This document shows, one piece after another, positions 25,831 through 44,172 of a DNA stretch of 64,000 nucleotides (position 1 is its first letter; the number at the start of each line of letters is the position of its first letter). A model generated the notes under the pieces. The model was not told where the DNA came from, ran no database searches, and saw only the letters and a program-made list of their open reading frames with translations. Location: assembly GCA_965219455.1 (NCBI GenBank), contig OZ244744.1, forward strand, positions 2,688,001-2,752,000, in the 5' to 3' direction. The DNA is from Candidatus Latescibacterota bacterium. Lineage in GTDB: Bacteria; Latescibacterota; UBA2968; GCA-2709665. The translations under genes and the position numbers were made by a program.

Positions 25831-28800
25831 CGATTTGAACCGGCAAACCAGGAACGGATGTATACCCTGGTGTCGTCTGACGAGAGCTTAACGGTTCCCG
25901 GACCGCTGCGCACGAAAAAGTCACCTCCGTTTTCCTTCTCAAGTCCCTTCCAGGAGAGGAACACCGGTTCCGGGCTCCGCTGGCAGCTCAGCACGCATAC
26001 CGCCTTGCCGTCGACGATCTGAACTCCGGGATCGATGCATGTGCCGGCGCGGTCGCCGAGCCCGTTGCGCACGACCTGTGCGAGATGCAGCATGAATTTG
26101 TCTTCGGTATCTAGCCGGTCGCGATCTATTCCAACGACGGCGCCGTCGTCGGTGACGCCTATCAGAAGGTCTCCGCCCTCCGTGTTCAGGAATGCGGCGA
26201 TCGTCTTGAGCGCCGAATGGGTGACGCGTTTGTCGTCCTTGCGGTCTTCATTCAGGTTCCAGCGCAACGTCGATTTAAATTCCAGGGTTTTCGACTCGCC
26301 CTGTTTGATGAGGTCCTCCGCGCTACGGTTCGTGCGCAAGAATTGGTCGAAGAGGACGTCTTTGATGACGTTTCCAAAAGCGCGGTCGTCGGTGATCCGT
26401 TTGTATAGATCGAAATTGGAATCCACAATACCCTGGATGGTCTCTTCAACCTTGTGGTCGAAGGTCAATCGCACATTTTCGCGCGTATTCACCCGCGCCG
26501 CGGCGCCGAGTGCAGCGTCTTCAGAAAGTCTGTCCATCATCTGGCCGAGGGTGGCGCGGTGCTCCTGCCCGAGTTCGACCCCGAAGCGCTCGTTCAATTC
26601 GGCGATGATCCGCGAAAGGGTCTCCATGTCTTCCGGCTGTAGCAAGTATGTGTCCTTTGTGCCGACGGGCTCGAGCTTCGTCGTCCCTCGCTCCAGGTTT
26701 ATTTTGCCTTTGCGGGTTTCCTGAATCCGATACGACTCCATGTCGATATTCTGCTGAACTTCGAGCGGCAACTCGGCCCGGTCCATTGGCAACAGGCGGC
26801 GTAAGTGTCGCGAGAAGACGTACAGCTTCTCCAGATCGACGTCGGCGAACGGAAGGATTTGTGCGAGAAACGCGTAAAGCCGCACGTAGTCGACAAGTTG
26901 GCCCCGGAATTCCTGCTGTTCACATTCTTCTAACGTCTGAAATCGGTGGACCACGGGATTGAGCGCGGCATGAAGCTGGTCCTGTGTGGCGGCCTTGTCG
27001 AAAAAAATCCTTGCGAATTCATCCACATCGGACTGATCGTATACCGGGAAGTCGGACAGACGCATCTGGATCTCGTAGAGCAGGTTGGGATCGGTCGCCT
27101 CCGACAGCAGTGTTGTTTCGAAATAAGGTTCGAAGGCCTCCTTGATGTCGTCGGCATCGTTGGCGAAATCGAGTACCATCGTGCCGTCTTTTCCTGGTTC
27201 TGTACGGTTAATCCGTGAGAGTGTCTGCACCGCGTTCACGCCTCCGAGTTTTTTGTCGACGTACATCGCGTGCAACAGCGGCTGGTCGAAACCGGTCTGG
27301 AATTTATTCGCACATATCAGGAATCGATATTCCGATCCTTTGAATGTGTTTGCGGTCTGCACCTCGGAAACGCCGTTCATGCCGGGCTCGGTATAGGACT
27401 TGCCGCCATCCTCGACGGTGCCCGAGAACGCAACCAGCGCTTTGAACGCGTGCCCCTGTTCGGCGAGGTATTTGTCCACCGCTAGCTTGAAGCGAACGGC
27501 GTGCAGTCGCGAGCGGGTGACGATCATTGCCTTTGCCTTCCCGTCGATCTGGGTGTGCACCTGCTCGACAAAGTGGCAGACCATGATGCGTACCTTCTCG
27601 TCAATCGCGTGCGGGTGAAGTTCAACGTACGATTTGAGCAGGAAGGTAGCCTTGCGTTTGTCATAGCGCGGGTCGTCCTCCACCTTCTTCAATAGCCGCC
27701 AATAGGCTTTGTAGGTCGTATAGTTCTCCAGGACGTCTAGGATGAACCCCTCCTCGATGGCCTGCCGCATGCTGTAGAGGTGAAACGGTTCGAACGATTC
27801 GTCCGTGCGGCGGGTGCCAAAAAGCTCCAGCGTCTTGGGCTTGGGGGTCGCGGTAAAGGCGAAAGTCGAGAGATTGGGCAGGCGCCCGCGCTTCTCCACC
27901 TCCGCCAGGATCGTGTTTTCGAGTTCCTCTTCTGGCGTCTCGGCCCCGGCTTCCTCGTCCTCCGCCTCTTCGAGAGACCCCGTCGCCAACACCGCCTTGA
28001 GGCTCTTGGTGCTCTCGCCGGATTGGGACGAGTGCGCTTCGTCGACGATCAAGGCGAAGCGCTTGCCCGGCAACTGGCCGATTTCCTCGGCGATCACCGG
28101 AAATTTCTGCAGCGTGGTGACGATGATTGTCTTGCCGGCTTCGAGCGCCTCTTTGAGTTGGCGCGAGGTGGTGTCGATATTTTCCACAACGCCCAGGGTC
28201 TGCTCGAACTGGCGCATGGCGCCCTGGAGTGCGCGATCGAGAATGCGCCGGTCCGTGATAACTACGATCGAATCGAAAACACGGCGGTCTTCTATGTCGT
28301 GCAGCGTGGATAACTGGTGGGCGAGCCAGGCGATGGTGAACGTCTTACCGCTTCCGGCGGAGTGCTGGATGAGATAGCGCTGCCCCGCGCCGGTCTTACG
28401 GGCATCCGATATGAGCTTTCGCACGCAATCGAGTTGCTGGTAGCGCGGGAAGACCAGCGATTTCCTGCCGGTCTTGCGGCCGTTCTCGTCTTCCTCCTCG
28501 ACTTCGTGGACAAACTGGCGCACCAAATCAAGCACACTGTCCCGCGACCATGTATCCTCCCAGAGATACGAAGTGGCATAGCCGGATTGCGTAGGCGGCA
28601 CCGGCGGGTTTCCCGCGCCGCGGTTGTTGCCCTGGTTGAACGGAAGGAAGCGCGTTTTGGGACCGGCGAGACGTGTGGTAACGTAGACCAGATCCGGATC
28701 AACCGCGAAATGCGCCAGGCATCGGCCAAAGCCGAACAGCGGCTCACGCGGATCGCGGTCTGTCTTATACTGGCGGATCGCGTCCTCCACGGTCTGGCCG

Positions 28801-29354
28801 CTGAGCAGGTTCTTGAGTTCAGCGGTGAAAATGGGAATGCCGTTCAGAAACAGAACCAGATCGAGGCTCTTCTCGTTCTTCGTGCTATAGCGGATCTGAC
28901 GCCCGACGGCAAAGAAGTTGGCCATATACAGCCGGCGCGTCTCCTCGTTGAGCCCGCTGGCCGGCCGGAAATAGGCCAAACGGAACGTACAGCCCATATC
29001 CTTGATCCCGTTCCGCAGCACGTGGAGGACGCCCCGGCGTTCGATTTCCGATGATAGGCGCCTGAGAAAGCGTTCTCTGACCTCGGCGCCGTAATGCTGG
29101 GACAGCTTCCGCCACTCCTTCGGCTGCGTCGCTATAATGAAATCCAGAACATCTCTAGGCAGAAGGCAGAGCGCTCGGTCGTAGTCTTCCGGTTTGCGTT
29201 TGAAATAACCGCCGGGTTCCATCCCCTGGCCGCCTATGGGCAAGCCGCCTTCACGCACACCGGTCGGAAGACCCCCCGACTCATCCTTGCCATGGCCAAG
29301 CAAAGCCGCCTCGATGGCGTCTTCGAAGGCTTTTTCAGATACAACCGGACTCAT
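25827..29354 (-). CDS. hsdR: Type I restriction subunit R fused to C-terminal AlbA_2/Schlafen domain
   Basis: D..LFLNGIP...ELK nuclease motif, HSAGSGKT, DEAH, FTATP, QTGFD. C-terminal ESKTLEFKS...IAAFLNTEGGDLLIGV. Confidence 0.93.
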   Translation of the reverse strand: MSPVVSEKAFEDAIEAALLGHGKDESGGLPTGVREGGLPIGGQGMEPGGYFKRKPEDYDRALCLLPRDVLDFIIATQPKEWRKLSQHYGAEVRERFLRRLSSEIERRGVLHVLRNGIKDMGCTFRLAYFRPASGLNEETRRLYMANFFAVGRQIRYSTKNEKSLDLVLFLNGIPIFTAELKNLLSGQTVEDAIRQYKTDRDPREPLFGFGRCLAHFAVDPDLVYVTTRLAGPKTRFLPFNQGNNRGAGNPPVPPTQSGYATSYLWEDTWSRDSVLDLVRQFVHEVEEEDENGRKTGRKSLVFPRYQQLDCVRKLISDARKTGAGQRYLIQHSAGSGKTFTIAWLAHQLSTLHDIEDRRVFDSIVVITDRRILDRALQGAMRQFEQTLGVVENIDTTSRQLKEALEAGKTIIVTTLQKFPVIAEEIGQLPGKRFALIVDEAHSSQSGESTKSLKAVLATGSLEEAEDEEAGAETPEEELENTILAEVEKRGRLPNLSTFAFTATPKPKTLELFGTRRTDESFEPFHLYSMRQAIEEGFILDVLENYTTYKAYWRLLKKVEDDPRYDKRKATFLLKSYVELHPHAIDEKVRIMVCHFVEQVHTQIDGKAKAMIVTRSRLHAVRFKLAVDKYLAEQGHAFKALVAFSGTVEDGGKSYTEPGMNGVSEVQTANTFKGSEYRFLICANKFQTGFDQPLLHAMYVDKKLGGVNAVQTLSRINRTEPGKDGTMVLDFANDADDIKEAFEPYFETTLLSEATDPNLLYEIQMRLSDFPVYDQSDVDEFARIFFDKAATQDQLHAALNPVVHRFQTLEECEQQEFRGQLVDYVRLYAFLAQILPFADVDLEKLYVFSRHLRRLLPMDRAELPLEVQQNIDMESYRIQETRKGKINLERGTTKLEPVGTKDTYLLQPEDMETLSRIIAELNERFGVELGQEHRATLGQMMDRLSEDAALGAAARVNTRENVRLTFDHKVEETIQGIVDSNFDLYKRITDDRAFGNVIKDVLFDQFLRTNRSAEDLIKQGESKTLEFKSTLRWNLNEDRKDDKRVTHSALKTIAAFLNTEGGDLLIGVTDDGAVVGIDRDRLDTEDKFMLHLAQVVRNGLGDRAGTCIDPGVQIVDGKAVCVLSCQRSPEPVFLSWKGLEKENGGDFFVRSGPGTVKLSSDDTRVYIRSWFAGSNR

Positions 29355-30550
29355 GTTTGTGCTCTCGCGGTCGTGTTGGTTCCTGCTTCATCTGCATTTT
29401 CGATATAAGGCGCATCAAGCACCTGAAGCACTGCGTCCGCACAATATACACGATTTCGCTTTGCATCGCCAACCGGTGTAACAATACCAGCCGATTCCAA
29501 CCGGTCGACGGCGCGACGAGCAGTTGTATAGGCGACCCCCAGCTTCGATGCGAGCGCGGGCACGTTCCAAAACGGGAATTCAACGAATAATTGCAACACC
29601 TTTTCTAAATTCGTCGATCTGGCGCCAGCGAATTGCTCCGACCAGAGATGATACAATTCGTCGATTCGGCGGATCCGGTTTATCGCGTCCTCAGCCTGCT
29701 CGCAAACACCACGCAGAAAGTACACCAGCCACGCCTCCCACGCTCCTTCCTGCGTCACCGCAAGCAGGTGTGCGTAGTACTCCTGGCGCGTGGATTCGAA
29801 ATATGCACTTAGGTAAAGCAGCGGTGCGGGCAGTACGCCTCGTGCAACGAAAAGCAGCAGAATGAGCAGTCGGCCGACACGACCATTTCCATCCAGGAAG
29901 GGATGGATGGCCTCGAACTGCGCGTGAATGAGTGCCGCGTGCACGAGAGGCGGAAATGTCTCATCGTGCAGAAAGCGCTCGCAAGCAGCCAGACATCCCA
30001 TCATTTCATCCGGTGGCGGCGGAACGTAAGTGGCATTGTTCAACACGCTTCCGGGTGCGCCGATCCAGTTCTGGCGGCGGCGGAACTCCCCGGGCATCGC
30101 GTGGTCGCCTCGCGCGCCTTGCATCAGCCGCTCGTGCAGTTCGCGAACCAGACGCAACGAAAGCGGAAGGGTTTCCAGACGATCGATACCGTAGTCTAAC
30201 GCCACAATATAGTTTGCCACCTCTTCCAATTCCTCTGCGCTTCGCTCGACTCTCGCTCCGGCATTTGCCGCAAGCAATTCACCCAGGGAAACTTGTGTCC
30301 CCTCGATGCGGCTGGAGAGTTCCGCTTCCTTGTAAAGGAACGCCCTGATCAAGAGATGCGGAACGGGCATCAGCCTGCCTTCGGCCGCCAGCCGGCCCGT
30401 CGCATGTGCGGCACGTGAAAGCGCGAGGATCAGCTCGCCATCCCAGACTATCTCGGGCGGAAGCGGTGCCGGTACATATGCGCTATAGTCACCAGGACAT
30501 CGAACTGTGCGCCCGTGGGGCCGACGTTGACCATTGTTTCCGGATGTCAC
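29351..30550 (-). CDS. Fic family protein (Fic_N + Fic + C-terminal HTH)
   Basis: Canonical HPFLDGNGRVGR and SSRIEG; ATGA overlap with hsdR. Confidence 0.93.
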   Translation of the reverse strand: MTSGNNGQRRPHGRTVRCPGDYSAYVPAPLPPEIVWDGELILALSRAAHATGRLAAEGRLMPVPHLLIRAFLYKEAELSSRIEGTQVSLGELLAANAGARVERSAEELEEVANYIVALDYGIDRLETLPLSLRLVRELHERLMQGARGDHAMPGEFRRRQNWIGAPGSVLNNATYVPPPPDEMMGCLAACERFLHDETFPPLVHAALIHAQFEAIHPFLDGNGRVGRLLILLLFVARGVLPAPLLYLSAYFESTRQEYYAHLLAVTQEGAWEAWLVYFLRGVCEQAEDAINRIRRIDELYHLWSEQFAGARSTNLEKVLQLFVEFPFWNVPALASKLGVAYTTARRAVDRLESAGIVTPVGDAKRNRVYCADAVLQVLDAPYIENADEAGTNTTARAQT

Positions 30551-30955: not shown

Positions 30956-32221
30956 ATGGCAATTGACCAAAGAATGCTGGCCCAGAGGCTTAGGCGGGCC
31001 AGAGAAACCAGCAGCCTGACCCAGGACGACGTTGCGAGCCACCTCGGAGTTTCGCGCTCCACTGTGGCTCAGATCGAACTAAGTAACCGTTCGGTCACGG
31101 GTATCGAACTGTATCGCCTTGCCACCCTCTTCGGTATGGATCTGCAGAGCCTTTTGGCAGAGGAGGAACCGGAAAAGGAGAGCGCACTCGTCGCGTTGTA
31201 CCGAGTTCACCCGGACCTGTCGAGCACGGAGGATCTGGGAGAGCCACTCCGCCGGTGCCTGGCTCTGGGCCGGGAGATGACCAGACTTGAAGAACTGCTG
31301 GATATTGACCGCGACCTCGTTACTGTGGCTGCCTACCCACTTCCGCAACCACGCACCACATGGGAAGCTATACAGCAAGGTGAACGGGTCGCCTCGGAAG
31401 AACGCGGACGCCTAGGGCTCGGACTTAGGTCAATCTCCGACATCGCCCAGCTACTCGAATCACAGGATGTTCGTACTGCCTTGGTCACGTTGCCGGACGA
31501 CGTCTCAGGCTTTACCCTCATCAAGCAAGAGATCGGAGTACTAATCGTAGCAAATCGGGAGCACCATATCTTTCGCAGGCGATTCTCATACGCACACGAG
31601 TATTGTCACGTACTTATCGACCGTGTCGAAGGTGGTTTGGTAAGTCGAGCAGACGACCGTGATCAGTTACGTGAGGTCCGCGCTAATTCATTTGCCGCCA
31701 GCTTTCTAATGCCTGCCGAGGCGGTGCGCCAGTTTATCCACGCATCCGGAAAGGGGCGGCCCAGCCGCCTGGAAGCCGAAGTATTCGACGAGAGTACGCC
31801 AATTCGCGGGCGCGCTCGATCTACCGCAGGAAGCCAGAAAATACAGCTGTACGATGTAGTGCGGATGGCGTACCACTTCGGCGTCAGCCGAGTCGCCGCA
31901 TGCTATCGGCTGAGAAGCACTCGACTGCTTACAGCTACCGAGCTCGAGAGTTTGTTGGAACAAGAGAATATGGATAAGGGCCGTAAACTGGAGCGACTTA
32001 TGGGTATTCCGGAACCAGACCACCAAGCTCTGCGCAATGAGTTCCGGGACCGCTTTGTCGGGTTAGCTCTGGAAGCATTGAGGAGGAAGAGAATTTCGCG
32101 TGCCGAACTTATCGATTTAGTAGGCATGTTGGACCTGGATGCCTGCGAAGTGGACCAGGCTGTTTCCGACCTGCAACTCGACGACGACGGTAGTACCGAC
32201 GATTACGCACGTTGGACATAG
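30956..32221 (+). CDS. XRE HTH-ImmA/IrrE (M78) metallopeptidase fusion regulator
   Basis: LTQDDVASHLGVSRSTVAQIE HTH; RRFSYAHEYCH and EVRANSFAASFLMP. Confidence 0.92.
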   Translation: MAIDQRMLAQRLRRARETSSLTQDDVASHLGVSRSTVAQIELSNRSVTGIELYRLATLFGMDLQSLLAEEEPEKESALVALYRVHPDLSSTEDLGEPLRRCLALGREMTRLEELLDIDRDLVTVAAYPLPQPRTTWEAIQQGERVASEERGRLGLGLRSISDIAQLLESQDVRTALVTLPDDVSGFTLIKQEIGVLIVANREHHIFRRRFSYAHEYCHVLIDRVEGGLVSRADDRDQLREVRANSFAASFLMPAEAVRQFIHASGKGRPSRLEAEVFDESTPIRGRARSTAGSQKIQLYDVVRMAYHFGVSRVAACYRLRSTRLLTATELESLLEQENMDKGRKLERLMGIPEPDHQALRNEFRDRFVGLALEALRRKRISRAELIDLVGMLDLDACEVDQAVSDLQLDDDGSTDDYARWT

Positions 32222-32349
32222 TGGATTATCGTCCAGACATCAAACTGAAATCTAACGTGCGAGCGAGACGCGATTTTCAGCTGGGTATATTGTCAATAAG
32301 CGCACCTAAAACGGACATATCAAACACGAATCTTGTAGGAGATCTTGAA

Positions 32350-33489
32350 ATGCATACAATGACCTTTTTCCCGTTGGGAAACGCCGATTGCTGCCGGATT
32401 GAACTGTCGTGTGACCGCATTATCCTTATTGATTTCGCGGCAACCAAAGACGAAAATGACGACTATGACCTTAGGTGTAACCTTCCGGAACTTCTCAAGG
32501 ACGGCTTGAAGAAGAAGAATCGTGATTATTTCGATGTGGTAGCGTTCAGCCATCTGGATAAAGATCACTTCAAGGGGGCCTCCGACTTCTTCTACCTTGA
32601 ACATGCGAGGAAGTACCAAGTCGGAGAACGTATAAAGATGAACGTAATGTGGGTACCTGCTGCGTTTATCACGGAGGTGGGTCCAGACGACGACGAAGCG
32701 CGCGTCTTGCAGAGGGAGGCCCGACACAGATTCCGTCAGAGTAAGGGGATCCGCGTCTTTTCCCGGCCCGAACGGTTGAAGAAGTGGTGCGAAAAAAACG
32801 ACATCAAGCTTGAAGACCGGCTTCACTTGATAACCGATGCGGGAAAGACCGCGCCGGAGTTTTCCCTGAGAAAACATCAGATCGAGTTTTTCGCTCACTC
32901 TCCATTTGCGATCCGTCAGAACGAAAACACTGTCGAGGACCGCAACGAGGACTCGCTTGTGCTGCATGCAACTTTCCGTGTCGCAGGCGTACATACCAAA
33001 GCGCTGATGCTGGCTGATTCCACCCATGAAGTGCTTTCACAGATCGTAGACATCACCGAGTCCAAGGGTAACGAAAAATACCTTGAGTGGGATATCGTGA
33101 AGATTCCCCACCACTGCAGCTATCTTTCCATAGGATCCGAAAAGGGGACAAACAAAACCACGCCCGTTTCTCAGGTGGCGCGGCTATACGAAAAAGAGGG
33201 ACAGCATGGGGCGATCGCTGTGTCAACAAGCAAGCCAATTCCCCACGCAGGTAGCGACGACGACAAGGACTCGCAGCCACCCCACCGACAGGCCGCGAAT
33301 TATTACAAGGACGTCACGCGTGCCCTCAATGGCCAATTCGTCGTAACGATGGAACATCCATCGAGTAACTCTCCTAAGCCGTTGGTGATTGAAATCGGAC
33401 AAAGCAAAGCGACACTGAAAAAGAGTGTAGCGAGCACGGGAATAATCGCTACATCAGGTCGTGCAACGAGGGCAGGTTGGCAACGATGA
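32350..33489 (+). CDS. Metallo-beta-lactamase-fold hydrolase ending ...RAG-WQR
   Basis: FFPLGNAD, SHLDKDH, NEDS, LAD, KIPHHCS (ComEC-like MBL motifs); GGAG RBS before ATG 32350. Confidence 0.85.
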   Translation: MHTMTFFPLGNADCCRIELSCDRIILIDFAATKDENDDYDLRCNLPELLKDGLKKKNRDYFDVVAFSHLDKDHFKGASDFFYLEHARKYQVGERIKMNVMWVPAAFITEVGPDDDEARVLQREARHRFRQSKGIRVFSRPERLKKWCEKNDIKLEDRLHLITDAGKTAPEFSLRKHQIEFFAHSPFAIRQNENTVEDRNEDSLVLHATFRVAGVHTKALMLADSTHEVLSQIVDITESKGNEKYLEWDIVKIPHHCSYLSIGSEKGTNKTTPVSQVARLYEKEGQHGAIAVSTSKPIPHAGSDDDKDSQPPHRQAANYYKDVTRALNGQFVVTMEHPSSNSPKPLVIEIGQSKATLKKSVASTGIIATSGRATRAGWQR

Positions 33490-35729
33490 GTTATTTCGAT
33501 GTCTCAGGGGACCAGGTACGGCCAGACGCCCTTGAGATCCCAAAGGCCGAAGATCTTGCGCTCAGTCTGTCGGCTGAGCGCATTGATTTCGCCCGGTTCG
33601 TCGAATGTCGCCGGCAGGATGAAATTGAGGTCGTGGTGTTCGACGTCGATGTCGAAATCGCACAAGTGCAGCGTCATCCGATCAAGGCAAGAGAACGTAT
33701 TTCCGCGGCATTTACTCGAAATGACGAAAACGTACCTGTCGTCCACGCCCTACGGAAGGACTTCCCGCGAGTGCCGCATCTCAACCTGCATCGGCAAGAG
33801 TACCCACGCAACCTCTGTATATATGCTGAACCATATGAGGAGATTAAACGCCGCTGGACATCACCGAGATTCGTACATGAAATCCGGCAATGGCTCGCGT
33901 TAACCAGCAAGGGGAAACTCCACCAGGACGACCAACCCCTTGAACCCCTTCTTGTGGATTTCCACGGGCACATTGTCCTTCCTTCTACCCAACAATTGGA
34001 GGAGCACCTACCAACCCCGCTAGTCGTAGCGCCGGTGAAATCGGACTATAGTAAAGGCCTTTTTCTGATCGCACTAACAGGTGAACCGCAGGAAGGACCG
34101 CCGTCGCTACTTGCTAGTGTACATCGTTGCGAACCTCAGACACATGGGGTTATTCATCAAATTCCGTCGACACTTGCGGACCTTGCTGCCATCACGAAAG
34201 ACGCTAAGTTCGACCTCATTTCTGACCTTCAGCAACGACTGGAGACTTGGCGTGACCAAGGCAGGCCGGTACTCGACTCCTGTCTTCTCCTCGTTCTTTT
34301 ATTTCCCAAAAAACGGGATGAAACAGACGTGATCGAAACAGTCGATAGTTGGGCGTTTTTCCTGTTGGACACTGAAGGAGACAAGGTTGGTGAGGGACTG
34401 GAAATTCGACGACTCGGCACCGAGATCGGCCTTTGGGATCTTCAGGACAATCACGTTGGTTTTCTCATGCAACCCGACACATCGAAAAACGGTCGAAATG
34501 TCGGAGTCGCAGTGCTGAATGTGGTTCGTCACTTCGATCGCTCAATGGCAGCAAGGCTAAATGGTGAGAACGAGGTGGGGGATGTTCGTGTTGTTGCAAT
34601 CGGGATGGGCGCACTGGGTTCACATGTCGCAATCAATCTTGCGAGAACAGGGTTTGGAACTTGGACACTGATCGATCACGACATACTATTGCCGCATAAT
34701 TTGGCGCGGCATGCCCTCGACGGTAGTTTTGTGGGCTGGAACAAGGCAGATGGCGTTGCACGCTTAGCGAATACGATAGTTTTCCGTTCCGATATGTTCA
34801 GCTCACTTCCAGTAAACGTACTTTCACCTGGACGGCAAACTCAAGAATTATCCAATTCGCTGGCTGAGGCCAATGTGATACTGGACATGTCGGCATCTGT
34901 TGGAGTTTCACGGATGCTTGCGCACGAATGCAATGGCACGGCCCGCAGGATCTCGTTGTTCCTTTCCCCGTCTGGGCAGGATCTCGTTCTACTCGCTGAA
35001 GATAAGCAACGAAACAGCACCCTGGATTCTCTTGAAATGCAGTACTACAGGGCCATCCTAAACGACCCTAGCTTGACCGGGCATATGATTAGGCCACCTA
35101 GCCGGTATCGCTATGCCCAATCCTGTCGCGATATCACAAGCCAACTGCCACAGCAAATGGTAGTGAGCCATGCGAGCACGGGAGGACGAGCGGTTCGTGA
35201 CGCTGTTCGGTGTAATAAAGCACAAATAACGATCTGGCGGACAAACGAAAACGGTGTCGCAAAACGCGTCACAGTTTCCGCCGCTCCAGTTGTGCGGAAA
35301 ACTACGGACAACTGGGCAATTATCACTGACAGGGAATTGATTGAAACCCTGGCGAGTTTGCGTAAATCTAAACTTCCAAATGAGACTGGAGGCGTTCTCC
35401 TGGGTTCTTTCGATATGGAGAGAAGAATCGTCTACATCGTCGATGTGTTGCCTTCACCACCCGATAGCGAAGAGTGGCCCACATTGTATATCCGCGGATG
35501 TGAGGGTCTTCGGAAGAAAATCACAGAAATTGAAAAGAAAGTGGACGGGATGATTGAGTACGTCGGAGAATGGCATTCTCATCCAGATGGCGCTGGCACG
35601 TCTCCCAGCGAGGATGATGGAAACGTACTCGCGTGGTTGCGGAAATTGAGACAAGCAGACGGTTACCCTGCCACGATGGCAATTGTCGCAGAATCAGGCA
35701 ACGTGGGATTTTATGTAGAGCAAATATAA
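33486..35729 (+). CDS. Prokaryotic E2 - E1/ThiF - JAB fusion protein
   Basis: E2: DFPRVPHLN...LCIY. E1: GMGALGS, DHD...HNLARH, distal YAQSCRD Cys. JAB: ETGG, EWHSHP..SPS..D. ATGA overlap with the MBL gene. Confidence 0.92.
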   Translation: MSYFDVSGDQVRPDALEIPKAEDLALSLSAERIDFARFVECRRQDEIEVVVFDVDVEIAQVQRHPIKARERISAAFTRNDENVPVVHALRKDFPRVPHLNLHRQEYPRNLCIYAEPYEEIKRRWTSPRFVHEIRQWLALTSKGKLHQDDQPLEPLLVDFHGHIVLPSTQQLEEHLPTPLVVAPVKSDYSKGLFLIALTGEPQEGPPSLLASVHRCEPQTHGVIHQIPSTLADLAAITKDAKFDLISDLQQRLETWRDQGRPVLDSCLLLVLLFPKKRDETDVIETVDSWAFFLLDTEGDKVGEGLEIRRLGTEIGLWDLQDNHVGFLMQPDTSKNGRNVGVAVLNVVRHFDRSMAARLNGENEVGDVRVVAIGMGALGSHVAINLARTGFGTWTLIDHDILLPHNLARHALDGSFVGWNKADGVARLANTIVFRSDMFSSLPVNVLSPGRQTQELSNSLAEANVILDMSASVGVSRMLAHECNGTARRISLFLSPSGQDLVLLAEDKQRNSTLDSLEMQYYRAILNDPSLTGHMIRPPSRYRYAQSCRDITSQLPQQMVVSHASTGGRAVRDAVRCNKAQITIWRTNENGVAKRVTVSAAPVVRKTTDNWAIITDRELIETLASLRKSKLPNETGGVLLGSFDMERRIVYIVDVLPSPPDSEEWPTLYIRGCEGLRKKITEIEKKVDGMIEYVGEWHSHPDGAGTSPSEDDGNVLAWLRKLRQADGYPATMAIVAESGNVGFYVEQI

Positions 35730-35757
35730 AGAAACCCTTCAAGACAAGGACAACAGA

Positions 35758-36459
35758 ATGAAAAACTGGTTTCCCTTCACCGATTATGACTTCTATGCCT
35801 ACTTGTCATCGGGTATGATTGTCCTGTTCGCCCTCGACTACGGCATCAACGACGGCGCCGTAATGTTTAGGAATAGTTGGCCTTTTGTTCAGGTCGTTTT
35901 CTTAATAGCAACGGCGTACATCGTTGGGCACATAATCGCCGGATTCGCGTCGGTTCTCCTCGAACAATGGTTGGGTCGCAGATTCTTGCGTTCTCCTGTT
36001 TCTGTGATGATGGATATGGGTGCCTCCCGATTTCGTGAGAGGGTCATTAGGTGTTTCTTCGCTGTGCGGTATTACGAGCCGCAATCTGAACATATCCGAT
36101 CAAAAATTCTGCAGAATGTAGCCGAAAGGTTAGGAAAGGAACCTGAGAGGATCGACAACCCCGAGGAAGTGTTTCAAGTCGCGTTTCCCGTAGCGCGAGC
36201 AGTTCCGGACGCCGCCGCACGTTTAGATGAATTTCGTAGGATGTACGGATTCTCAAGGAATGTCGCATTGTCGGGAGTGGTGGGGGCAGGCGCTTTGGTT
36301 TACAAGGCTGCGACGTCTAATGAGGTTACGCTATATTTGTGGGCGGCAGTTGTCGCCATTCTCTCAATCTGCATGTTTGGCCGCTTCGTGAAATTCTATG
36401 CCGCCTTTGGTTCTGAGGTATTGCGAACATATGCTTCAAAAGCCGAGGAGAAGAGCTAA
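35758..36459 (+). CDS. Uncharacterised membrane protein (~4 TM)
   Basis: Two N-terminal and two C-terminal hydrophobic helices around a soluble loop ending MYGFSRN; AAGGA RBS. Confidence 0.8.
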   Translation: MKNWFPFTDYDFYAYLSSGMIVLFALDYGINDGAVMFRNSWPFVQVVFLIATAYIVGHIIAGFASVLLEQWLGRRFLRSPVSVMMDMGASRFRERVIRCFFAVRYYEPQSEHIRSKILQNVAERLGKEPERIDNPEEVFQVAFPVARAVPDAAARLDEFRRMYGFSRNVALSGVVGAGALVYKAATSNEVTLYLWAAVVAILSICMFGRFVKFYAAFGSEVLRTYASKAEEKS

Positions 36460-37289
36460 TGAAGGTTGAAATCTTCGACGTTGAACATGGTGGTTGTGCG
36501 TTGATAACGGCCGACTCAGGCGCACGTATGCTTATCGATTGTGGTTCGAACTCATCAACCGGTTGGAGACCATCTCTTCATCTGCCGAGAAATGGGGTAG
36601 AAAACGTCGAAATGTTCGTGGTGACGAATTATGACGATGACCATGTGAACGACTTGCCAAACCTGCGGCGAGTTTCTGGTGGCCGCAGAACGGTAAATCT
36701 CAAGGCGCTTCTTAGGAACAGGACAATCTCGCCAGCGGCGCTCGTACGAATGAAAACGGATGGAGGTATGGGTCCTGGCATTCGGGAGCTCTTGGCGATG
36801 TTCAAGGAATATACAGGAGGGCCTCTTAAGGCTGACTGGGGGTCGCTGGAATACATTGTATTCTATAATTCCTATCCCGGTGACTTTAAGGACACGAACA
36901 ACCTCAGTCTCGTTATCTTTCTTCATTGCCACAATATGCATCTGGTGTTTCCGGGAGATTTGGAAAAGGCAGGATGGGAGAAGCTACTTGGAAACCCGGA
37001 ATTCGTTAAGGAACTAAAGACCGTGAATATCTTTGTTGCATCACACCATGGTCGCGAGAGTGGATGTTGTGAAGGAGTGTTTGAAATTCTTGGTGTAAAA
37101 CCATACGTTGTGATTTTTTCCGACGCAGGAATGCAATACGAAAGCCAGCGTACGGCGGACTGGTATCGTTCTCGAACCTACGGAATGAACTACAATGGGA
37201 AGAAGCGGCACGTTTTCACGACACGCCGTGACGGGAAAATCACTATCCAGGCGACACCGCGCCAAACGACAATTAGTACTGCTCGTTGA
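36459..37289 (+). CDS. Second MBL-fold (ComEC-like) hydrolase
   Basis: FDVEHG, LIDCG, TNYDDDH, NNLS, FPGDLE, SHHG; TAATG overlap and GAGGAG RBS. Confidence 0.87.
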   Translation: MKVEIFDVEHGGCALITADSGARMLIDCGSNSSTGWRPSLHLPRNGVENVEMFVVTNYDDDHVNDLPNLRRVSGGRRTVNLKALLRNRTISPAALVRMKTDGGMGPGIRELLAMFKEYTGGPLKADWGSLEYIVFYNSYPGDFKDTNNLSLVIFLHCHNMHLVFPGDLEKAGWEKLLGNPEFVKELKTVNIFVASHHGRESGCCEGVFEILGVKPYVVIFSDAGMQYESQRTADWYRSRTYGMNYNGKKRHVFTTRRDGKITIQATPRQTTISTAR

Positions 37290-37474
37290 CCTGTCACACT
37301 GTGTGAATCAAACTTAAGAAAATCCCTGCCAATAAAGGTCTTTCACAGCCCGCCCAACGCTCCTCTCCAATGGTCCTTGCATATCTACGCGGAATCGGCC
37401 GGATTCGTGGTACCCTCGGGATTTCCCTTTATTTTTCACCGAACGGTTGATAGCAGGCTTGGTTCACGATCGCA

Positions 37475-38884
37475 TCAAACGGCCTCCCGCACGTCGATCT
37501 TTCCTGTCACCGCCGCGGATATGAGGGCTTGTCGGAGTTCCTTCAGGCGGTCGATAGCTTCTCGGACCTTCTCGACAAGAGCATCGATTTTGGCCGTCTC
37601 ACGGTCAAGGAAAGCGGCTATGGCGCGTTGTTCGGGAAGTGGTGGAAGCGCAAATACCCCCACACGAATAGAATCGCCAGTAAGCCCAAAACGTGTGATA
37701 CCGTTAGCTGCAATATGATACTGATCTCGCGGTCCGATTGCGGAAAATAATCTTCCAATGAACCCGCCGTAAGAATGAGCGTCAGGCTTGATGTGAGCCA
37801 AATGGTAACCGCACAAAACGCCAATAAGGTCTTCAGAGACTACCGATGGAACAGCAATGTCTGCCCAGGTCTCAGAATCCTTTGTTATTAAAACGTCCCC
37901 TGCCCGAAGGGAAAAACGACGCACCTGCTCCGACGTCGCAGTCGCAGGCATAAAATCAACGCGTTTGTCTATTAGTTCGTTGTAATACACGTCGACGTAA
38001 TTGCAAAGTCGGATATTATCTTCACGTTCCTTAGACTTCTTGTCCACATTGCTGAGTTGGACAGTGGCAAAGAATTTCAGTCGCTTAACCTCCCAATGCG
38101 CCGGAATCTCGCCGAGCCACTCGATACCCGAGTCCTGCATAGGCACGTCGGTATCGAGGCCTGCCTGCGCCGCAGCGTCGGCAGGCAGGCTCCGCGTGAC
38201 GGTGTGGCTGATGAGCGCGGCGCGCTTCTCCTGCAGCAACTCGATCAGCCGCTCCTTTTTCGCGACGAGGGCGTCGATCCTGGCCGTCTCGCGGTCAAGG
38301 AAAGCGGCAATGGCGCATTGTTCGGGGAGAGAAGGAACGGAGATTCTGAGGCTAGCGTAGCGTTCTGCACTCACATTTTGGATCGTTGCTTGAATGAAAG
38401 TGCTTTGAAGCCAGTCAGTGTAGCCCTGAGATTGCGTAAAGTATTCAACAAAGTTTGACAAGGCTTGAATATTGTCAAGACGCGCTCGAATCAGATACCC
38501 AGCATATGCTGCCTTGCCCCAACTGGGGTGGTACCGAAAAGTCTTTCCTACGGTTGCCCCGCTACGCGCGAATAAAATGTCGCCAGCGACAAGAAGATAG
38601 GGTTTTGCGATGTTCTCGGGAAGCGACCTGAAACTATCGTCCCTCAATGTTCCGTCTTCTCGAATGTCCGTGATTCGAATATAGCGCGGAAGATTGTTTT
38701 CAGTGTGTTCAGCGGGCTCGTTGGCACCATACTTCAAGGGTTCAGCCAGGAGATGTTTAAGGCGCTTTACCTCCCAATGCGCCGGAATTCGCCCAAGCCA
38801 CTCGACGCCGGAGTCCTTGTAGTCCGGGTACGGACTAATTCCATCATTAACGAAGTTCTGAACGTCAGACTGCCGGTGATTCAC
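37475..38884 (-). CDS. hsdS: Type I restriction specificity subunit
   Basis: Two DSGxEWLGxIPAHWEVKRLK and two EQxAIAAFLDRETAxIDALV repeats around two TRDs; ends AVTGKIDVR; GGAGG before GTG 38884. Confidence 0.95.
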   Translation of the reverse strand: MNHRQSDVQNFVNDGISPYPDYKDSGVEWLGRIPAHWEVKRLKHLLAEPLKYGANEPAEHTENNLPRYIRITDIREDGTLRDDSFRSLPENIAKPYLLVAGDILFARSGATVGKTFRYHPSWGKAAYAGYLIRARLDNIQALSNFVEYFTQSQGYTDWLQSTFIQATIQNVSAERYASLRISVPSLPEQCAIAAFLDRETARIDALVAKKERLIELLQEKRAALISHTVTRSLPADAAAQAGLDTDVPMQDSGIEWLGEIPAHWEVKRLKFFATVQLSNVDKKSKEREDNIRLCNYVDVYYNELIDKRVDFMPATATSEQVRRFSLRAGDVLITKDSETWADIAVPSVVSEDLIGVLCGYHLAHIKPDAHSYGGFIGRLFSAIGPRDQYHIAANGITRFGLTGDSIRVGVFALPPLPEQRAIAAFLDRETAKIDALVEKVREAIDRLKELRQALISAAVTGKIDVREAV

Positions 38885-39400
38885 ATAGCCTCCGTGTACC
38901 TGGCTAAAACCTCTAACATCGTCTTGGTGCCCAAACGCCCGCTGCCAGATCATCGACCATCGTTTGCCCGTTCCACCGCGTCACAAAAGACCCTGAAAAA
39001 CCGTTCAATCCACCTCGTCTCGCAGAATCTTTCGAATTTGATCGACAGGCAGGAATTTCTCCTCGCACGATTGGAAAAGATAAAGTGCTGGAGCTTCGTC
39101 CAGGTTGCGGAGGAGCGCAGCCGCCCTTTTTGGCCATTCCTCTTTATTGGTATCGCCAATCAACGCCCGGAACACCAGGTCTGTTGTCTTAAGCGTTCTG
39201 GAATCGACAGGAATATCTTCGATCCAAACAATGGAAGCGGCGTTTTCCCAGATCTTGTTAATTCTGACGGACCGAGCGACGTATGTGACTGAAGATCTGC
39301 GCCCTTATCGCCGATATACGTACGTTAGATTCTTACAGTAAGGCTTCTACGCAAGATGCGTACATGTTTAATCATGCTGCTTGCATACGGTAAGGTGTTG

Positions 39401-39494
39401 AAATCCCCCCACCGCATCAGCCGTCGCCGGCCCTTCGACAAGCTCAGGGGACGGGCTCGGCTTCTGCGACTCCCCCTCAAGGGGGGAGTGATTG
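39401..39494. repeat. Composite intergenic palindromic repeat
   Basis: Contains CCCTTCGACAAGCTCAGG (inverse of the 17422 element) and an ACTCCCCC...GGGGGAGT hairpin. Confidence 0.6.
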
Positions 39495-39654
39495 AACCTT
39501 CAAACGGGCTCGCCCGATAATTGCCACCTGTTTGGTTGCGGCTGAGCATGGCGAAGCCGCGCTTGGCCTATAGATCAAACAAGCCATTTGTCTCGTCGCG
39601 TTCGAATGCAGAAAGGTGGAGTTGCCGGTTTCGAGTTGAGCGACCCGCCCGGTG

Positions 39655-39996
39655 CTATCCGTCGAATTCGTACAAGAGGTTGTCACCGGACACGCCCGCG
39701 ATTCGAAGGTCGACCTTGCCCGGACCGGGTCCGTATAACTGCTGATAGCGCGTCCTGACCAGGGCGAGGTCGAAGACATGGGACTCGGTCAGCCATGCCT
39801 CGCAGAGATCGCCGTTCGCATTATGGGCGAGCACGGCCGGAAGCTGCACCGGATCCGACTCTCTGAACGATTTCGAGATTACCAGCGTGAAGTCGTGTCT
39901 CCGGCAGCCGGTCGCGGCGAGCACGGCGAGCAGTAGCGCGACCGAGGCCGCGCCCCTCTCGGCGGAAACCAGGGAACCGGCGGATCCGGATGTCAT
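39655..39996 (-). CDS. Small lipoprotein-like ORF, possibly internally deleted
   Basis: GGAGG RBS, hydrophobic stretch ending AATGC, then a HDFTLV...ESDPVQ...HNANGDLCEA domain. Confidence 0.55.
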   Translation of the reverse strand: MTSGSAGSLVSAERGAASVALLLAVLAATGCRRHDFTLVISKSFRESDPVQLPAVLAHNANGDLCEAWLTESHVFDLALVRTRYQQLYGPGPGKVDLRIAGVSGDNLLYEFDG

Positions 39997-40179
39997 TGAT
40001 CCCTCCAGCGTTGGATTTCGAGTTGTCCCGCAAGACCGCAAAAGCAATATAGCACCGATTCGGCGCTTCAAGGCCGCCGATCGGGCCAGCCGGGCAGCTT
40101 TGTCCCGGTTGGCTGGCGCTTCACTTGAAGATATCGTATTCTTGCTGTGGTTCGTCAGGTAGAGAGACCAGAAAGACAA

Positions 40180-40238
40180 CAAATGTCGGCACTTAATAGT
40201 AACTGCCGACATTTGATGCTGATTGCCGATCCAATATA
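40180..40238. promoter_or_regulatory. Orphan copy of AbiE-type operator inverted repeat
   Basis: CAAATGTCGGCA-12bp-TGCCGACATTTG; aligns over ~55 bp with 42034-42091. Confidence 0.65.
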
Positions 40239-40492
40239 TAATGAAGTTCGACATTTCAACATCGTTAAATTTATCGCCCGATCATCGTCTGTATTTTCTA
40301 CGAGTAAGCTGGCGCTTGGCCGTCCACGTACGCCCCACATTCCAAATCGAACGAACGCCTGCGGCGGACAATGATCAGGTAGGTACTTTGGACATTCGCG
40401 AATTTAGACAGATGAACCGTACCAAGGGGCCAACCCGCGGAGAGCCCAGTTCCAGCCGTGCACGGAGCGTACTCGGCTTTCATCAGAAAGGC

Positions 40493-41416
40493 CTATTCAT
40501 GTCGCCAGGGTCCACCTGCCTTCCAACTCCCCGTGAAACCGGCTCCGCGCGCCACAGCATCCCATGGTTCTCTGAAAAACGATATAAGACGGTCGCCCAA
40601 AGAACCGAAATCTGCGGGCGCACCCGCAAGCGCGTTCCGTTCCAGATAGGTACGCCACTGACCGGCACGCTCTCCATCAGCATAAAAGCGGGCCGTCAGA
40701 GCAACGGGTAGAGCCTGTGAGAAAGTTGTACGTCGTCGTTCGAAGGTCGCGCGCAAAGCTCTCAAGAGTTGATTGCCCTCGAAAGCAAAGTGCTGTATAA
40801 GGGCATAAAGATCGTAAAAGTCCTTGTTTCGACTGTTCCGTTCGCCCAACACAACCATCGCATGAAGCTTTTCCGCAACGACGGCCTCCCGCGGGTAGAC
40901 TCGGATATCCGGACTGGGATTGTCGAGCAAGGTCTTGTAAAGTGTGTCGGTCGGTGGCGGTTCGACGGCATTTCCAAAGCCAATATCGATCTGCATACGT
41001 ATACGTGCGTTATCCAGCGTCGCACTGAAACTTACGCGGAGACTATCATACATGTCCTGATCGCGAATGGTTTCGATCGCGATGTTGCTGATATCGAAGA
41101 CAAGTCCATCGTCGTCCACCGGAGTCTGACAGATTTCCCGGACCGTGGACCTTACTTCGTTCAATAACGAACTGCCGTAACCGGTAAAGTCTAGATCGCG
41201 GGTCGGGCGGTAGACTGCTTCAACCCAATGGACAAGAAGCATAGCGCCTTTCAAGATATAGCGATTGCGATACGGCGACTCTCCCAGCCGGTAGAGGAAT
41301 CGTTCTGCCGCGTATCGCTCCAGCAGGAACTGGAAATCCTCACCGGTTTGACGGCTCCGGTTCAACAATCTTGCGCGCACTGATGCGCCGACATTACGGC
41401 GCCCTCCGCGAGTCAT
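40493..41416 (-). CDS. abiEii: AbiEii family nucleotidyltransferase toxin
   Basis: LKGA, RPTRDLD, AEKLHAM, NSRNKDFYD; ATGA overlap with abiEi. Confidence 0.92.
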   Translation of the reverse strand: MTRGGRRNVGASVRARLLNRSRQTGEDFQFLLERYAAERFLYRLGESPYRNRYILKGAMLLVHWVEAVYRPTRDLDFTGYGSSLLNEVRSTVREICQTPVDDDGLVFDISNIAIETIRDQDMYDSLRVSFSATLDNARIRMQIDIGFGNAVEPPPTDTLYKTLLDNPSPDIRVYPREAVVAEKLHAMVVLGERNSRNKDFYDLYALIQHFAFEGNQLLRALRATFERRRTTFSQALPVALTARFYADGERAGQWRTYLERNALAGAPADFGSLGDRLISFFREPWDAVARGAGFTGSWKAGGPWRHE

Positions 41417-42018
41417 GTTTGAAGCGCCTCCAGGTAACTCCGCATAACCGTCTGCGCGCGGCAAACTTCTGCCGCTCGCATAATCTCGTCCACGGTCGCA
41501 GCACGCGATCGCAGAACATCATGCAGCGCCTCAAGCGCTATATCGAGTCCAAGCTTGTTGCGATACCGAAAACAATCCACGACGGTTCGGGCTGGCGAAG
41601 TGATGCGAAACGGTACCCCCAGCGCCGAATGGTGGGTTACCCCATAGGTTAGCATCGCACCTGAGAAACGGACCATGCGTACCCGAGCGGGCGGGCGAGC
41701 GGGTTTGCGAGCCTTGCGGTCCAGAGCGATCCAGATCTCGTGAGGCGACTGCGTGCCGATTTCGTGGAAACGAAGCGCCGTCAGCAGGCACATGACGGCA
41801 TTCGGTATGGCCGCAGCTACCATCGCGATCGTCTCTACCTCTGTCGCTTCGACCTCGGAGAGTCGATAAAGGCCATTTCCCAGACTATCGACGAGTCCTT
41901 CGGCGACGAGACCCATGAGTCGCCGATGTGAGATCCCGAACGGTGCGAGGTCTTTAGGTCGAAAATAGACACCCAGGCCCGCTTCTTGAAGTTGAGCAAT
42001 ATCCATTGGGTGAACCAT
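41413..42018 (-). CDS. abiEi: AbiEi family antitoxin/regulator
   Basis: GLYRL, CLLTALRFHEI, SPARTVVDCFRYRNKLG; start 42018 or 42006. Confidence 0.92.
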   Translation of the reverse strand: MVHPMDIAQLQEAGLGVYFRPKDLAPFGISHRRLMGLVAEGLVDSLGNGLYRLSEVEATEVETIAMVAAAIPNAVMCLLTALRFHEIGTQSPHEIWIALDRKARKPARPPARVRMVRFSGAMLTYGVTHHSALGVPFRITSPARTVVDCFRYRNKLGLDIALEALHDVLRSRAATVDEIMRAAEVCRAQTVMRSYLEALQT

Positions 42019-42033
42019 TTGCGAAATGATACT

Positions 42034-42091
42034 AAATGTCGTCACTTTATCGTAACTGCCGATAATTGTTGTCAATCTGCTGGTCAAATAA
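42034..42091 (-). promoter_or_regulatory. abiE promoter/operator
   Basis: Imperfect inverted repeat AAATGTCGTCA...TGCCGATAATT with minus-strand TTGACA just upstream of abiEi. Confidence 0.6.
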
Positions 42092-42103
42092 GGGCGCGGG
42101 ATG

Positions 42104-42391
42104 TTATCGAAAACCTCTGAGCCGGGCCAGGAGACTCTTTGCGTGCCGGCAAGCGTCTTCGACGAGACCCGGGTCGATTTGCGCCAGGAGGATTGGAACG
42201 GCACCTCCCTTCGAATCGTCGAGTGCCGTAGTAAAACGGTTGAATGTCTGTTGACGCGTGCCTCCCCGCACCACTCTCGGCATTCGACCGCCGAGTCCAG
42301 CCTTTGCAAGGAAAGCCTTCCAAGCCTCGCGGAACTGCGCACCAAGGCGGCGATTGTCGCCCCCGCCCTCAATATATAGTACGGCTGTCAC
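42104..42391 (-). pseudogene. DUF4276-like (TOPRIM-like) protein with apparent in-frame internal deletion
   Basis: N-terminal LYIEGGG...GGTR...PILL joined directly to C-terminal AQIDP..VEDAC.HAK; only 95 aa; GTGA overlap with the ATPase. Confidence 0.65.
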
Positions 42392-43605: not shown

Positions 43606-43753
43606 ATCGGCTCCTCAAGCATGCGTAGCGGTTATTTTGCCGTGCAAACACACCCGTCAGTTTTTCAGGCCGCTTATGACGTGTTCCTAGTAAGCAGTCC
43701 TTCCAGGCTGAAGTCAACTCTATCATCAATTGATGAGCCTTCTGCCGTTCTCG

Positions 43754-44068: not shown

Positions 44069-44090
44069 GATCCAAACCTTTGGTTAATCG

Positions 44091-44148: not shown

Positions 44149-44172
44149 GTTGCCATAGATACTTTTGGTGGC

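Follow-up and report, generated by a model that had tools for sequence, protein, structure and literature searches.

A likely 6A-MBL anti-phage system with two add-ons in a defence island within a type I restriction-modification operon of a Candidatus Latescibacterota bacterium

A block of five genes at positions 30956-37289 of a 64,000-nucleotide stretch of Candidatus Latescibacterota DNA (contig OZ244744.1; the whole stretch is called the window below) is probably a 6A-MBL anti-phage system with two add-ons, situated in a defence island within a type I restriction-modification (R-M) operon. Genes 2 and 3 encode a metallo-β-lactamase (MBL)-fold enzyme and cap2_3, a fusion protein with E2, E1 and JAB domains. 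By family membership, these two genes are the catalogued 6A-MBL anti-phage system, and the core is not new. Gene 1 encodes a regulator with a helix-turn-helix (HTH) and an M78 peptidase domain, and genes 4 and 5 encode a transmembrane (TM) protein and a second MBL-fold hydrolase (MBL2). The core is one more copy of a catalogued system, and the interest of the locus lies in the TM-MBL add-on and in the support that it gives to conjugation of the enzyme itself. The five genes (lengths in amino acids, aa) and the tail of gene 2 are as follows.

30956..32221, + strand: gene 1, 421 aa, fused HTH repressor and M78 (ImmA/IrrE) metallopeptidase (Pfam, PADLOC)
32350..33489, + strand: gene 2, 379 aa, MBL-fold enzyme of the 6A-MBL system, fold like ComEC/Pce, metal site HxDxDH (NCBIfam NF058524)
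33427..33486, + strand: flexible C-terminal tail of gene 2, end TRAG-WQR, predicted adenylation/conjugation site with a 3-residue extension (model, alignment)
33486..35729, + strand: gene 3, 747 aa, 6A-MBL cap2_3 protein, E2-E1-JAB triple module (NCBIfam NF058523)
35758..36459, + strand: gene 4, 233 aa, 4-TM protein of helices only, with two TM segments on either side of a soluble helical middle (2+2) and a YGFxRN motif, no named family (sequence, AlphaFold2)
36459..37289, + strand: gene 5, 276 aa, second MBL-fold hydrolase, PADLOC candidate family PDC-M48B (PADLOC PDLC04674)

Gene 3 scored 631 bits against NF058523 ('anti-phage 6A-MBL system cap2_3 protein'; cut-off 320), and gene 2 scored 390 bits against NF058524 ('anti-phage 6A-MBL system MBL-fold protein'; cut-off 220). 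Operon type 6a is given as a two-gene operon in row 6a of Table 1 of Iyer, Burroughs and Aravind 2006 (PMC1779556). Its sequence hallmarks were all found in the window. The domains PF14457, PF00899 and PF14464 follow one another in that order as an E2-E1-JAB triple module, a specialised MBL gene lies directly upstream with an ATGA overlap, and the catalytic residues of the E2, E1, JAB and MBL metal sites are kept. The sporadic, island-borne distribution is also shared, and no difference from 6A-MBL was seen in the core. This copy differs in its same-strand fused HTH-M78 regulator, in the 3 residues after the terminal Gly of the MBL enzyme, and in the 4-TM and second-MBL pair downstream, which lies outside the two-gene definition. 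PADLOC v2.0 holds no 6A-MBL model and gave only generic CBASS E1-E2 and JAB matches.

The pairing of the two core genes was examined in a genome survey of one genome per species, in which 524 cap2_3 relatives were confirmed and the best 80 loci of the 524 were kept. An MBL relative stood directly upstream of cap2_3 in 74 of the 80 loci. Of the six exceptions, four had no upstream DNA and two had an N-terminally truncated cap2_3. In these two (L011 and L062), the cap2_3 match starts from residues 234 and 185, respectively, with no MBL gene upstream, and they are probably decayed copies.

The anti-phage status of 6A-MBL is already in the literature. For P. aeruginosa, a 2025 preprint counts it with the 'known jumbo phage defense systems', and a 2026 review states that its anti-phage activity was experimentally confirmed, crediting van den Berg et al. 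2024. The first-pass annotation, which had been made from the letters of the window alone, granted that operons of this kind had been noted bioinformatically but knew of no established mechanism. An unestablished or unmatched system is not supported, given the exact family matches of genes 2 and 3; the locus belongs to a characterised family, in so far as identity and the defence phenotype of that family are concerned. Nor are two of its ideas new: conjugation of the MBL enzyme appears in the Discussion of PMC11601596, and the link to an HTH-peptidase regulator appears in Lau et al. The core itself, its standing as an anti-phage system, the idea of conjugation and the tie to the regulator are thus all in print.

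The domains of the gene 3 protein are listed below.

33633..34007, + strand: E2-like domain Prok-E2_A with Cys111 in PRNLCIY (Pfam PF14457, 9e-23)
34554..34931, + strand: E1 (ThiF) adenylation domain with a GxGxxG loop (Pfam PF00899, 2e-12)
~35124-35126, + strand: candidate E1 catalytic Cys547 (invariant in relatives)
35334..35624, + strand: JAB/JAMM isopeptidase domain with E633, H697xH699 and D710/D711 (Pfam PF14464, 1e-9)

The JAB domain also matched PADLOC JAB at 5e-22 and NCBIfam Cap3 at 1e-8, and PADLOC E1-E2 models were matched at up to 4e-26. A word-indexed search, in which 8000 candidates were scored, found 893 relatives at E<=1e-10, and nearly all of the 120 relatives listed have the same three Pfam domains. 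In an alignment of 20 of these 120, gene 3 keeps every invariant column: H98/N100 and C111 in the E2 domain, G373/G375/G378 in the E1 domain, C547, and E633, H697, H699 and D711 in the JAB domain. D710, which is kept in at least 90% of the aligned relatives, is also present. The earlier proposal that the 747-aa fusion retains its E2 Cys, its E1 nucleotide-binding and Cys motifs and the JAB HxH..D, and so unites writer and eraser in one polypeptide, is borne out by these columns and by the presence of Prok-E2_A, ThiF and Prok-JAB in one protein. The closest solved relatives are the CBASS Cap2 structures 7tsq and 7to3, which match the E1 part only (E ~1e-10 to 1e-11; 3e-11 for 7tsq). No 6A-MBL structure was found in the copy of the PDB that was searched. 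As a separate observation, seven virus- or prophage-labelled contigs (L137-L143) hold cap2_3 relatives with matches of more than 370 residues at 31-36% identity, and some cap2_3 copies may be carried by prophages.

The reading frame of gene 2 is open from TTG 32212 (425 aa), and ATG 32350 gives 379 aa. ATG 32350 is most likely the start, because AGGAG lies 8 nucleotides (nt) upstream and because the relatives and the NCBIfam model align from there; genes 1 and 2 therefore do not overlap. The conserved residues of the metal site are H114, D116, D118, H119, H229, D269, H300 and H301 (425-aa numbering). The AlphaFold2 model, built on an alignment of the window protein with 41 of 70 called MBL genes, has a mean predicted local distance difference test score (pLDDT) of 92.4 and a predicted template modelling score of 0.90. 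Its last 20 residues (360-379) have pLDDT <50. A beta-grasp domain was not found in this model, which has only a disordered tail at that end.

The tail carries a strictly kept end. Its Gly (codon 33475-33477) is conserved in 100% and the Arg two positions earlier in 97% of 62 aligned sequences, namely 61 relatives and the window. Among the 70 MBL reading frames of the 80-locus set that reach the C-terminus, the Gly of the (P)RAG motif is the exact end in 48, and the other 22 have 1-19 residues more. This is the pattern expected for a C-terminus that would be adenylated by an E1, with JAB trimming of extended forms, and it parallels the relation of CD-NTase and Cap2 as quoted in Lau et al. None of 23 accessory MBL2 proteins ends in Gly. 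The core MBLs also form a single branch (Shimodaira-Hasegawa-like support 100) apart from several MBL2 subfamilies in an unrooted 60-row FastTree, for which every third core gene was taken. Together, the invariant Gly, the disordered tail, the lack of a ubiquitin-like (Ubl) gene and a Cap2/Cap3-like fusion with its full set of catalytic residues support the MBL enzyme itself as the putative conjugated moiety. The first-pass annotation had likewise proposed that the MBL hydrolase acts as the 'ubiquitin', and alignment and model now speak for it.

Related conjugation systems were also considered. None of the five proteins matched a CD-NTase, Pycsar cyclase or Ubl family in Pfam, PADLOC or NCBIfam, in agreement with what had been read from the letters. 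Type II CBASS (a signalling defence against phage that is based on cyclic oligonucleotides) and Pycsar were rejected because no cyclase was matched and no spare coding space is left. Bil and Bub were rejected because there is neither a Ubl family match nor a beta-grasp domain in the gene 2 model. MBL, lactamase and Pycsar are absent from the Ledvina preprint, and one review is silent here as well. The system would work like type II CBASS minus the cyclase. It shares with it a Cap2-like E2-E1, which is the closest solved relative, a Cap3-like JAB, a substrate enzyme with a flexible C-terminal tail, regulators of the CapH/CapP kind, and TM or patatin proteins in a downstream slot. It differs in that Cap2 and Cap3 are fused and no CD-NTase or other cyclase is present, and in that the enzyme has a hydrolase fold, so that a nucleotide second messenger is not evident. 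It is a member of 6A-MBL and not of CBASS, Pycsar, Bil or Bub.

The slot behind cap2_3 was examined in the same 80 loci. Genes were called as longest non-overlapping open reading frames (ORFs), and one locus without a called cap2_3 was dropped, which left 79; two neighbours on each side of the core were clustered. Two families recur in the slot. The first consists of proteins of ~250 aa with a 2+2 TM layout, and the second of ~385-aa patatin-like phospholipases, with PF01734 in 5/5 representatives tested. The DNA downstream reached at least 1.2 kb in 75 loci; the gene immediately downstream on the same strand was a TM gene in 21 of these and a patatin gene in 18, together 39/75, and many of these third genes overlap the cap2_3 stop by 3-28 nt. 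Counted anywhere in the locus, TM genes occur in 31/79 and patatin genes in 22/79, both in 0/79 and neither in 26/79. Two further families of small 2+2-TM proteins are represented in six of the 26 loci with neither, and one of the two families matches PADLOC PDC-M48A at 5e-63; four more of the 26 have less than 1.5 kb of downstream DNA. MBL2 (E<=1e-20) was present in 14 loci, with TM in nine, with patatin in three and alone in two. A swappable membrane-directed third gene, either 4-TM or patatin, is thus frequent in the 6A-MBL operon. No paper on this slot was found in the literature search, which did not take in the 6A-MBL primary paper and its supplements, and these may cover it.

Two side points concern the slot. 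The patatins are not claimed to be 'CapV-like': of four tested, two had no CBASS phospholipase match and two matched at 2e-4 to 6e-4, so that the 6A-MBL patatins match CBASS phospholipase models weakly or not at all. The loci L043 and L044 have nearly identical cap2_3 genes (tree branches 0.06-0.07) and different third genes, an opposite-strand patatin in one and MBL2 with TM in the other, which looks like a recent cassette exchange.

Gene 4 is the window's member of the TM family. A hidden Markov model (HMM) of the family behind cap2_3, built without gene 4, matches it at 5e-18. Gene 4 gave no match in Pfam, PADLOC (even at E<=1) or NCBIfam, its 124 relatives are all 'hypothetical', and the ESM Atlas returned no named cluster and 'hypothetical' proteins only. 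Y10, Y163 and R167 are invariant, and at least 90% of the aligned relatives have G164 and N168, which gives the YGFxRN motif. The AlphaFold2 model is all-helical (pLDDT 86) and has no PDB match at E<=1e-3 in Foldseek. Gene 5 matches PDLC04674 at 7e-85 over profile positions 1-266 of 270, as a full PDC-M48B protein, and has a weak ComEC/Rec2 match in NCBIfam (1e-4). Its conserved residues are H10, D59, D61, H62, D167, H196 and H197, and neither a signal peptide nor a Gly motif at the C-terminus is present. It has 1891 cluster representatives at E<=1e-3 and groups with the 270-aa MBL2 type in the 60-row tree. Basic residues are enriched at the termini and in the soluble middle of gene 4; together with the lack of a signal peptide in gene 5, this would place the gene 5 MBL at the membrane's cytoplasmic side.

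The TM and MBL2 genes are read here as a tight unit that fills the swappable 6A-MBL slot and is not obligate to 6A-MBL. A scan of metagenome contigs with an alignment of gene 4 (22 of the 120 relatives listed) gave 23 loci, 21 of them with a TM-family match. In the 19 loci with downstream DNA, an MBL gene lay directly downstream of the TM gene on the same strand in 17 and was adjacent on the opposite strand in two. Ten loci had at least 2.3 kb upstream, and in only two of them (L113 and L126) was cap2_3 the gene directly upstream of the TM gene; a third locus, L120, holds a convergent cap2_3 copy. Within the phylum of the window, gene 5 relatives (E<=1e-20) were found in four other genomes of 168 searched. 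In three of the four they belong to a module of TM, MBL (336 aa) and MBL (270 aa) with no cap2_3 within 17 kb; in the fourth the TM and MBL genes are adjacent and convergent. Of the stand-alone modules, one adjoins hsdS (L101) and one lies near a 614-aa patatin. The latter locus, L100, holds at 4883-10318 (- strand) a co-oriented run of TM, MBL (333 aa), MBL (266 aa), a 299-aa protein and the 614-aa patatin without cap2_3, a layout that may be related to that of the 6A-MBL operon but free of conjugation. A single protein, P0273 (501 aa), has a gene 4-like part (residues 5-213, E 5e-14) followed by a gene 5-like part (227-484, E 6e-59).

Exchange of the unit is seen within the genus. Among the 168 phylum genomes, cap2_3 occurs in six, the window's own included, and it occurs in 1 of 14 other genomes of the genus. 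The locus concerned, L133, agrees with L001 in gene order and identities, and the two were counted as one. As in the window, the site lies between hsdS and Fic-hsdR. The MBL2 gene behind the TM gene of L133 appears split into overlapping ORFs (6915-7112 and 7094-7792, - strand, within 6915-7792) and may be frameshifted or decaying.

Several observations weigh against this placing of genes 4 and 5 as part of a working 6A-MBL slot. Neither a TM-family nor a patatin gene is present in the 26 loci noted above, and the core is therefore evidently able to work as two genes. On a 65-row cap2_3 FastTree (the window and 64 of the 79 loci; 15 were dropped for a cap2_3 shorter than 650 aa or less than 1.2 kb downstream), 25 changes of the third-gene state were counted, against a shuffled mean of 30.5; a number as low was reached in only 2 of 200 shuffles. 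Genes 1-3 of L133 are 88, 87 and 76% identical to those of the window, while its TM and MBL2 genes come from other subfamilies. The swaps of third genes and the L133 exchange are explained equally well by independent systems that lie side by side and by a swappable effector. The P0273 fusion is one of 150 representatives listed and could be a gene-calling artefact, and longer, fused relatives of gene 5 were searched for and none were found. Gene 4 does not match PADLOC PDC-M48A, and the comparison of its family with M48A-like proteins gave an hhalign probability of 22%, which is weak and does not establish kinship.

It is accordingly possible, if on balance doubtful, that genes 4 and 5 are an independent candidate defence system of the PDC-M48 type that merely neighbours 6A-MBL in the island. 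PDC-M48 consists of a small membrane-like protein of ~165 aa (A) and an MBL (B). Gene 5 is a full-length PDC-M48B match, and a small 2+2 TM protein precedes it as PDC-M48A precedes PDC-M48B in L037 and L048, where true PDC-M48A+B pairs also lie behind cap2_3; gene 4 matches no PDC-M48A model. No paper on PDC-M48 was found in the literature search. The stand-alone modules, including the one adjoining hsdS, and the frequent swapping of third genes also fit independence. On the other side, in the 39/75 loci, which come from many phyla, the same few families lie next to the cap2_3 stop, a few bases away at most and in the same orientation, which is more regular than chance clustering in islands. 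In addition, MBL2 is not present in 22 of the 31 TM loci, so that the core enzyme is the only MBL partner there. A separable unit within the 6A-MBL slot remains the preferred reading. The earlier view of the TM/MBL2 pair as an effector or second layer thus stands in part: the pair recurs behind cap2_3, but it also stands without cap2_3 and was swapped in the same-genus genome, which points to a separable and not an obligate module.

The activity of the MBL enzymes bears on what such partners do. The best PDB match of the gene 2 model in Foldseek is the ComEC MBL domain (9ic4, E 7e-13), and the sequence-profile PDB matches of the core MBL alignment are ComEC entries only. The ComEC MBL domain is a DNA nuclease. 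Because both the best structural match and the only profile matches are to this domain, the core MBL activity is most likely that of a nuclease. The likeness to ComEC/Rec2 extends to the weak match of gene 5 and to the combination of a membrane part with an MBL, which is echoed in genes 4 and 5 and in the P0273 fusion; by contrast, gene 4 has no detectable similarity to the ComEC membrane domain, an OB domain is not present here, and the setting is one of defence. The Foldseek list for gene 2 also holds phosphodiesterases and phospholipase D, which speaks against a nuclease: Pce phosphorylcholine esterase takes ranks 2-4, followed by NAPE-PLD and RNA-processing MBLs. The MBL enzymes might thus act on phospholipid head groups or another phosphodiester instead of DNA and, jointly with a TM or patatin protein, damage the membrane and so kill the infected cell. 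The membrane proteins and patatin phospholipases found as partners would suit this, yet it is unlikely in view of the ComEC matches and of the PADLOC cross-matches, in which the MBL portions of Lamassu LmuA, DRT and Avs1a were hit. A nuclease therefore remains the preferred activity.

A stricter view, and the stronger form of the first-pass reading, would join all five genes in one obligate system, in which the conjugated MBL is the sensor or activator and TM/MBL2 its dedicated effector, like CD-NTase and effector in CBASS. The genes are co-oriented and tightly packed with stop/start overlaps, and the genes found in the slot behind cap2_3 encode membrane effectors typical of CBASS, namely TM or patatin proteins, which never occur together. 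A survey of the five-gene order, which the first-pass annotation had suggested, recovered the full set (HTH-M78, MBL, cap2_3, TM and MBL2) in L001, L016, L019 and L057, with TM and MBL2 upstream of the core in L019, and recovered it only partly in L003, L021 and L054. This view is nevertheless improbable. Of the 10 metagenome loci whose upstream DNA is long enough, eight have the TM and MBL unit but no cap2_3, and the unit likewise occurs apart from cap2_3 in four same-phylum genomes. Both TM and patatin are missing from 26/79 cap2_3 loci, genes 4 and 5 were replaced with genes 1-3 still 76-88% identical, and the definition of NCBIfam and of Iyer et al. 2006 comprises two genes.

Gene 1 is a fused CapH/CapP-like regulator. 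Pfam places HTH_31/HTH_3 at residues 8-64 and Peptidase_M78 at 184-265; the HExxH motif is intact as HEYCH in the translation, and the C-terminal ~150 residues have no assignment. HTH and M78 with HExxH, as in CapH/CapP, are thus both present, here fused and on the strand of the operon. PADLOC matches were RmrA at 4e-25, capP at 8e-16 and capH at 2e-5, and the NCBIfam 'spr1629 family repressor/antitoxin' match (1e-11) was far under its cut-off. Lau et al. describe CapH as a repressor that is cleaved by CapP upon DNA damage, and CapH/CapP-like genes adjoining '6a systems'. Of the 60 survey loci with enough upstream DNA, 18 had a CapH/CapP-like gene no more than 1.5 kb upstream of the MBL gene, and in many cases it was on the opposite strand; the HMM used for this came from a single-linkage cluster mixing HTH-only, M78-only and fused proteins. 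As in the CapH/CapP, ImmR/ImmA and DdrO/IrrE pairs, an HTH repressor and an M78 peptidase with HExxH lie upstream of a defence operon, but the published pairs are divergent, whereas here they are one 421-aa protein on the operon strand. That gene 1 is a RosmerTA-type antitoxin (RmrA) with gene 2 as its toxin, independent of cap2_3, would fit its strongest PADLOC matches and the spr1629 family match, but it is rejected as very improbable, since the MBL enzyme tracks cap2_3 (74/80 loci) and not the regulator (18/60) and since CapH/CapP-like regulators of 6a systems are already published.

The five genes of the block at 30956-37289 are co-oriented + strand ORFs. The genes 2/3 overlap (ATGA) lies at 33486-33489, and genes 4/5 overlap by TAATG at 36457-36461. 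From gene 1 to gene 5 the intergenic gaps are 128, 0, 28 and 0 nt, and space for a further gene is therefore excluded. G+C is 0.49-0.53 over 32000-37500 against 0.56-0.60 in the hsdR/Fic flank. Scans for promoters gave the shuffle level (6 promoter-like sites, 6.0 expected), and those for terminators stayed below it (4 terminator-like sites, 7.2 expected). The block is inverted inside the type I R-M operon, whose other cargo is all on the - strand. The neighbouring features are these.

25827-29354, - strand: hsdR, type I restriction subunit with a Schlafen/AlbA_2 domain (Pfam, PADLOC)
29351-30550, - strand: Fic gene, PADLOC family SoFic (Pfam, PADLOC)
37475-38953, - strand: hsdS (Pfam)
37475-46509, - strand: hsdS, a 199-aa ORF without assignment, AbiEii/AbiEi, AAA_21 ATPase and hsdM (Pfam)

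Flank calls and composition thus agree with the earlier description of five co-oriented, AT-richer genes with ATGA and TAATG overlaps, inserted in reverse between hsdS and fic-hsdR, and they support a defence-island setting. The hsdS and hsdM genes are split by inserted genes, and the type I R-M operon is therefore a landing pad with at least four other defence-type modules. In this flank, the Schlafen/AlbA_2 domain is C-terminal in HsdR (residues 1020-1157), and the hsdR start overlaps the stop of the Fic gene (SoFic). Between hsdS and hsdM lie the 199-aa ORF (39655-40254), the AbiEii/AbiEi pair (40493-42372) and the AAA_21 ATPase (42388-43605). The gene order of the R-M/defence region is the same in the same-genus locus L133, where hsdS is 40% identical.

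By analogy with type II CBASS, a mechanism can be proposed. Gene 1 probably represses the operon until a damage or infection cue triggers cleavage. The JAB domain would trim the three residues WQR after the conserved RAG, and the E1 domain would adenylate the exposed Gly of the flexible gene 2 tail. The MBL enzyme would pass as a thioester from E1 Cys547 to E2 Cys111 and be ligated to a target, and this ligation may prime or localise a ComEC/Pce-like metallo-phosphodiesterase, most likely a nuclease. The JAB domain could also undo the ligation. The 4-TM protein of gene 4 would hold, or work with, the cytoplasmic MBL hydrolase of gene 5 at the inner membrane. The two may form a membrane-directed effector or second layer that is able to work alone, in a slot that elsewhere is filled by a patatin phospholipase.

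For the family as a whole, the data provide a sequence-level case for enzyme conjugation, built on the invariant terminal Gly, on precursor-like extensions in about one third of copies and on the disordered tail. The swappable third gene suggests where the killing or anchoring step lies, and the comparative data link 6A-MBL to the PADLOC candidate PDC-M48. A tentative and speculative extension is that ComEC/Pce-like MBLs with swappable membrane partners (three 2+2-TM families or patatin) form a wider two-tier defence family, as in CBASS. Its 'type I' would be a partner with an MBL and no conjugation (PDC-M48 and the stand-alone TM and MBL modules), and its 'type II' would be 6A-MBL, an MBL lineage that gained the Gly tail and a priming Cap2-Cap3 fusion. 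The 4-TM protein would then be the true membrane effector or anchor of the MBL, and the window would carry both tiers in one operon. The five-gene locus and its same-genus variant with a different TM/MBL2 pair are a natural pair that would bear on the relation between the add-on and phage range.

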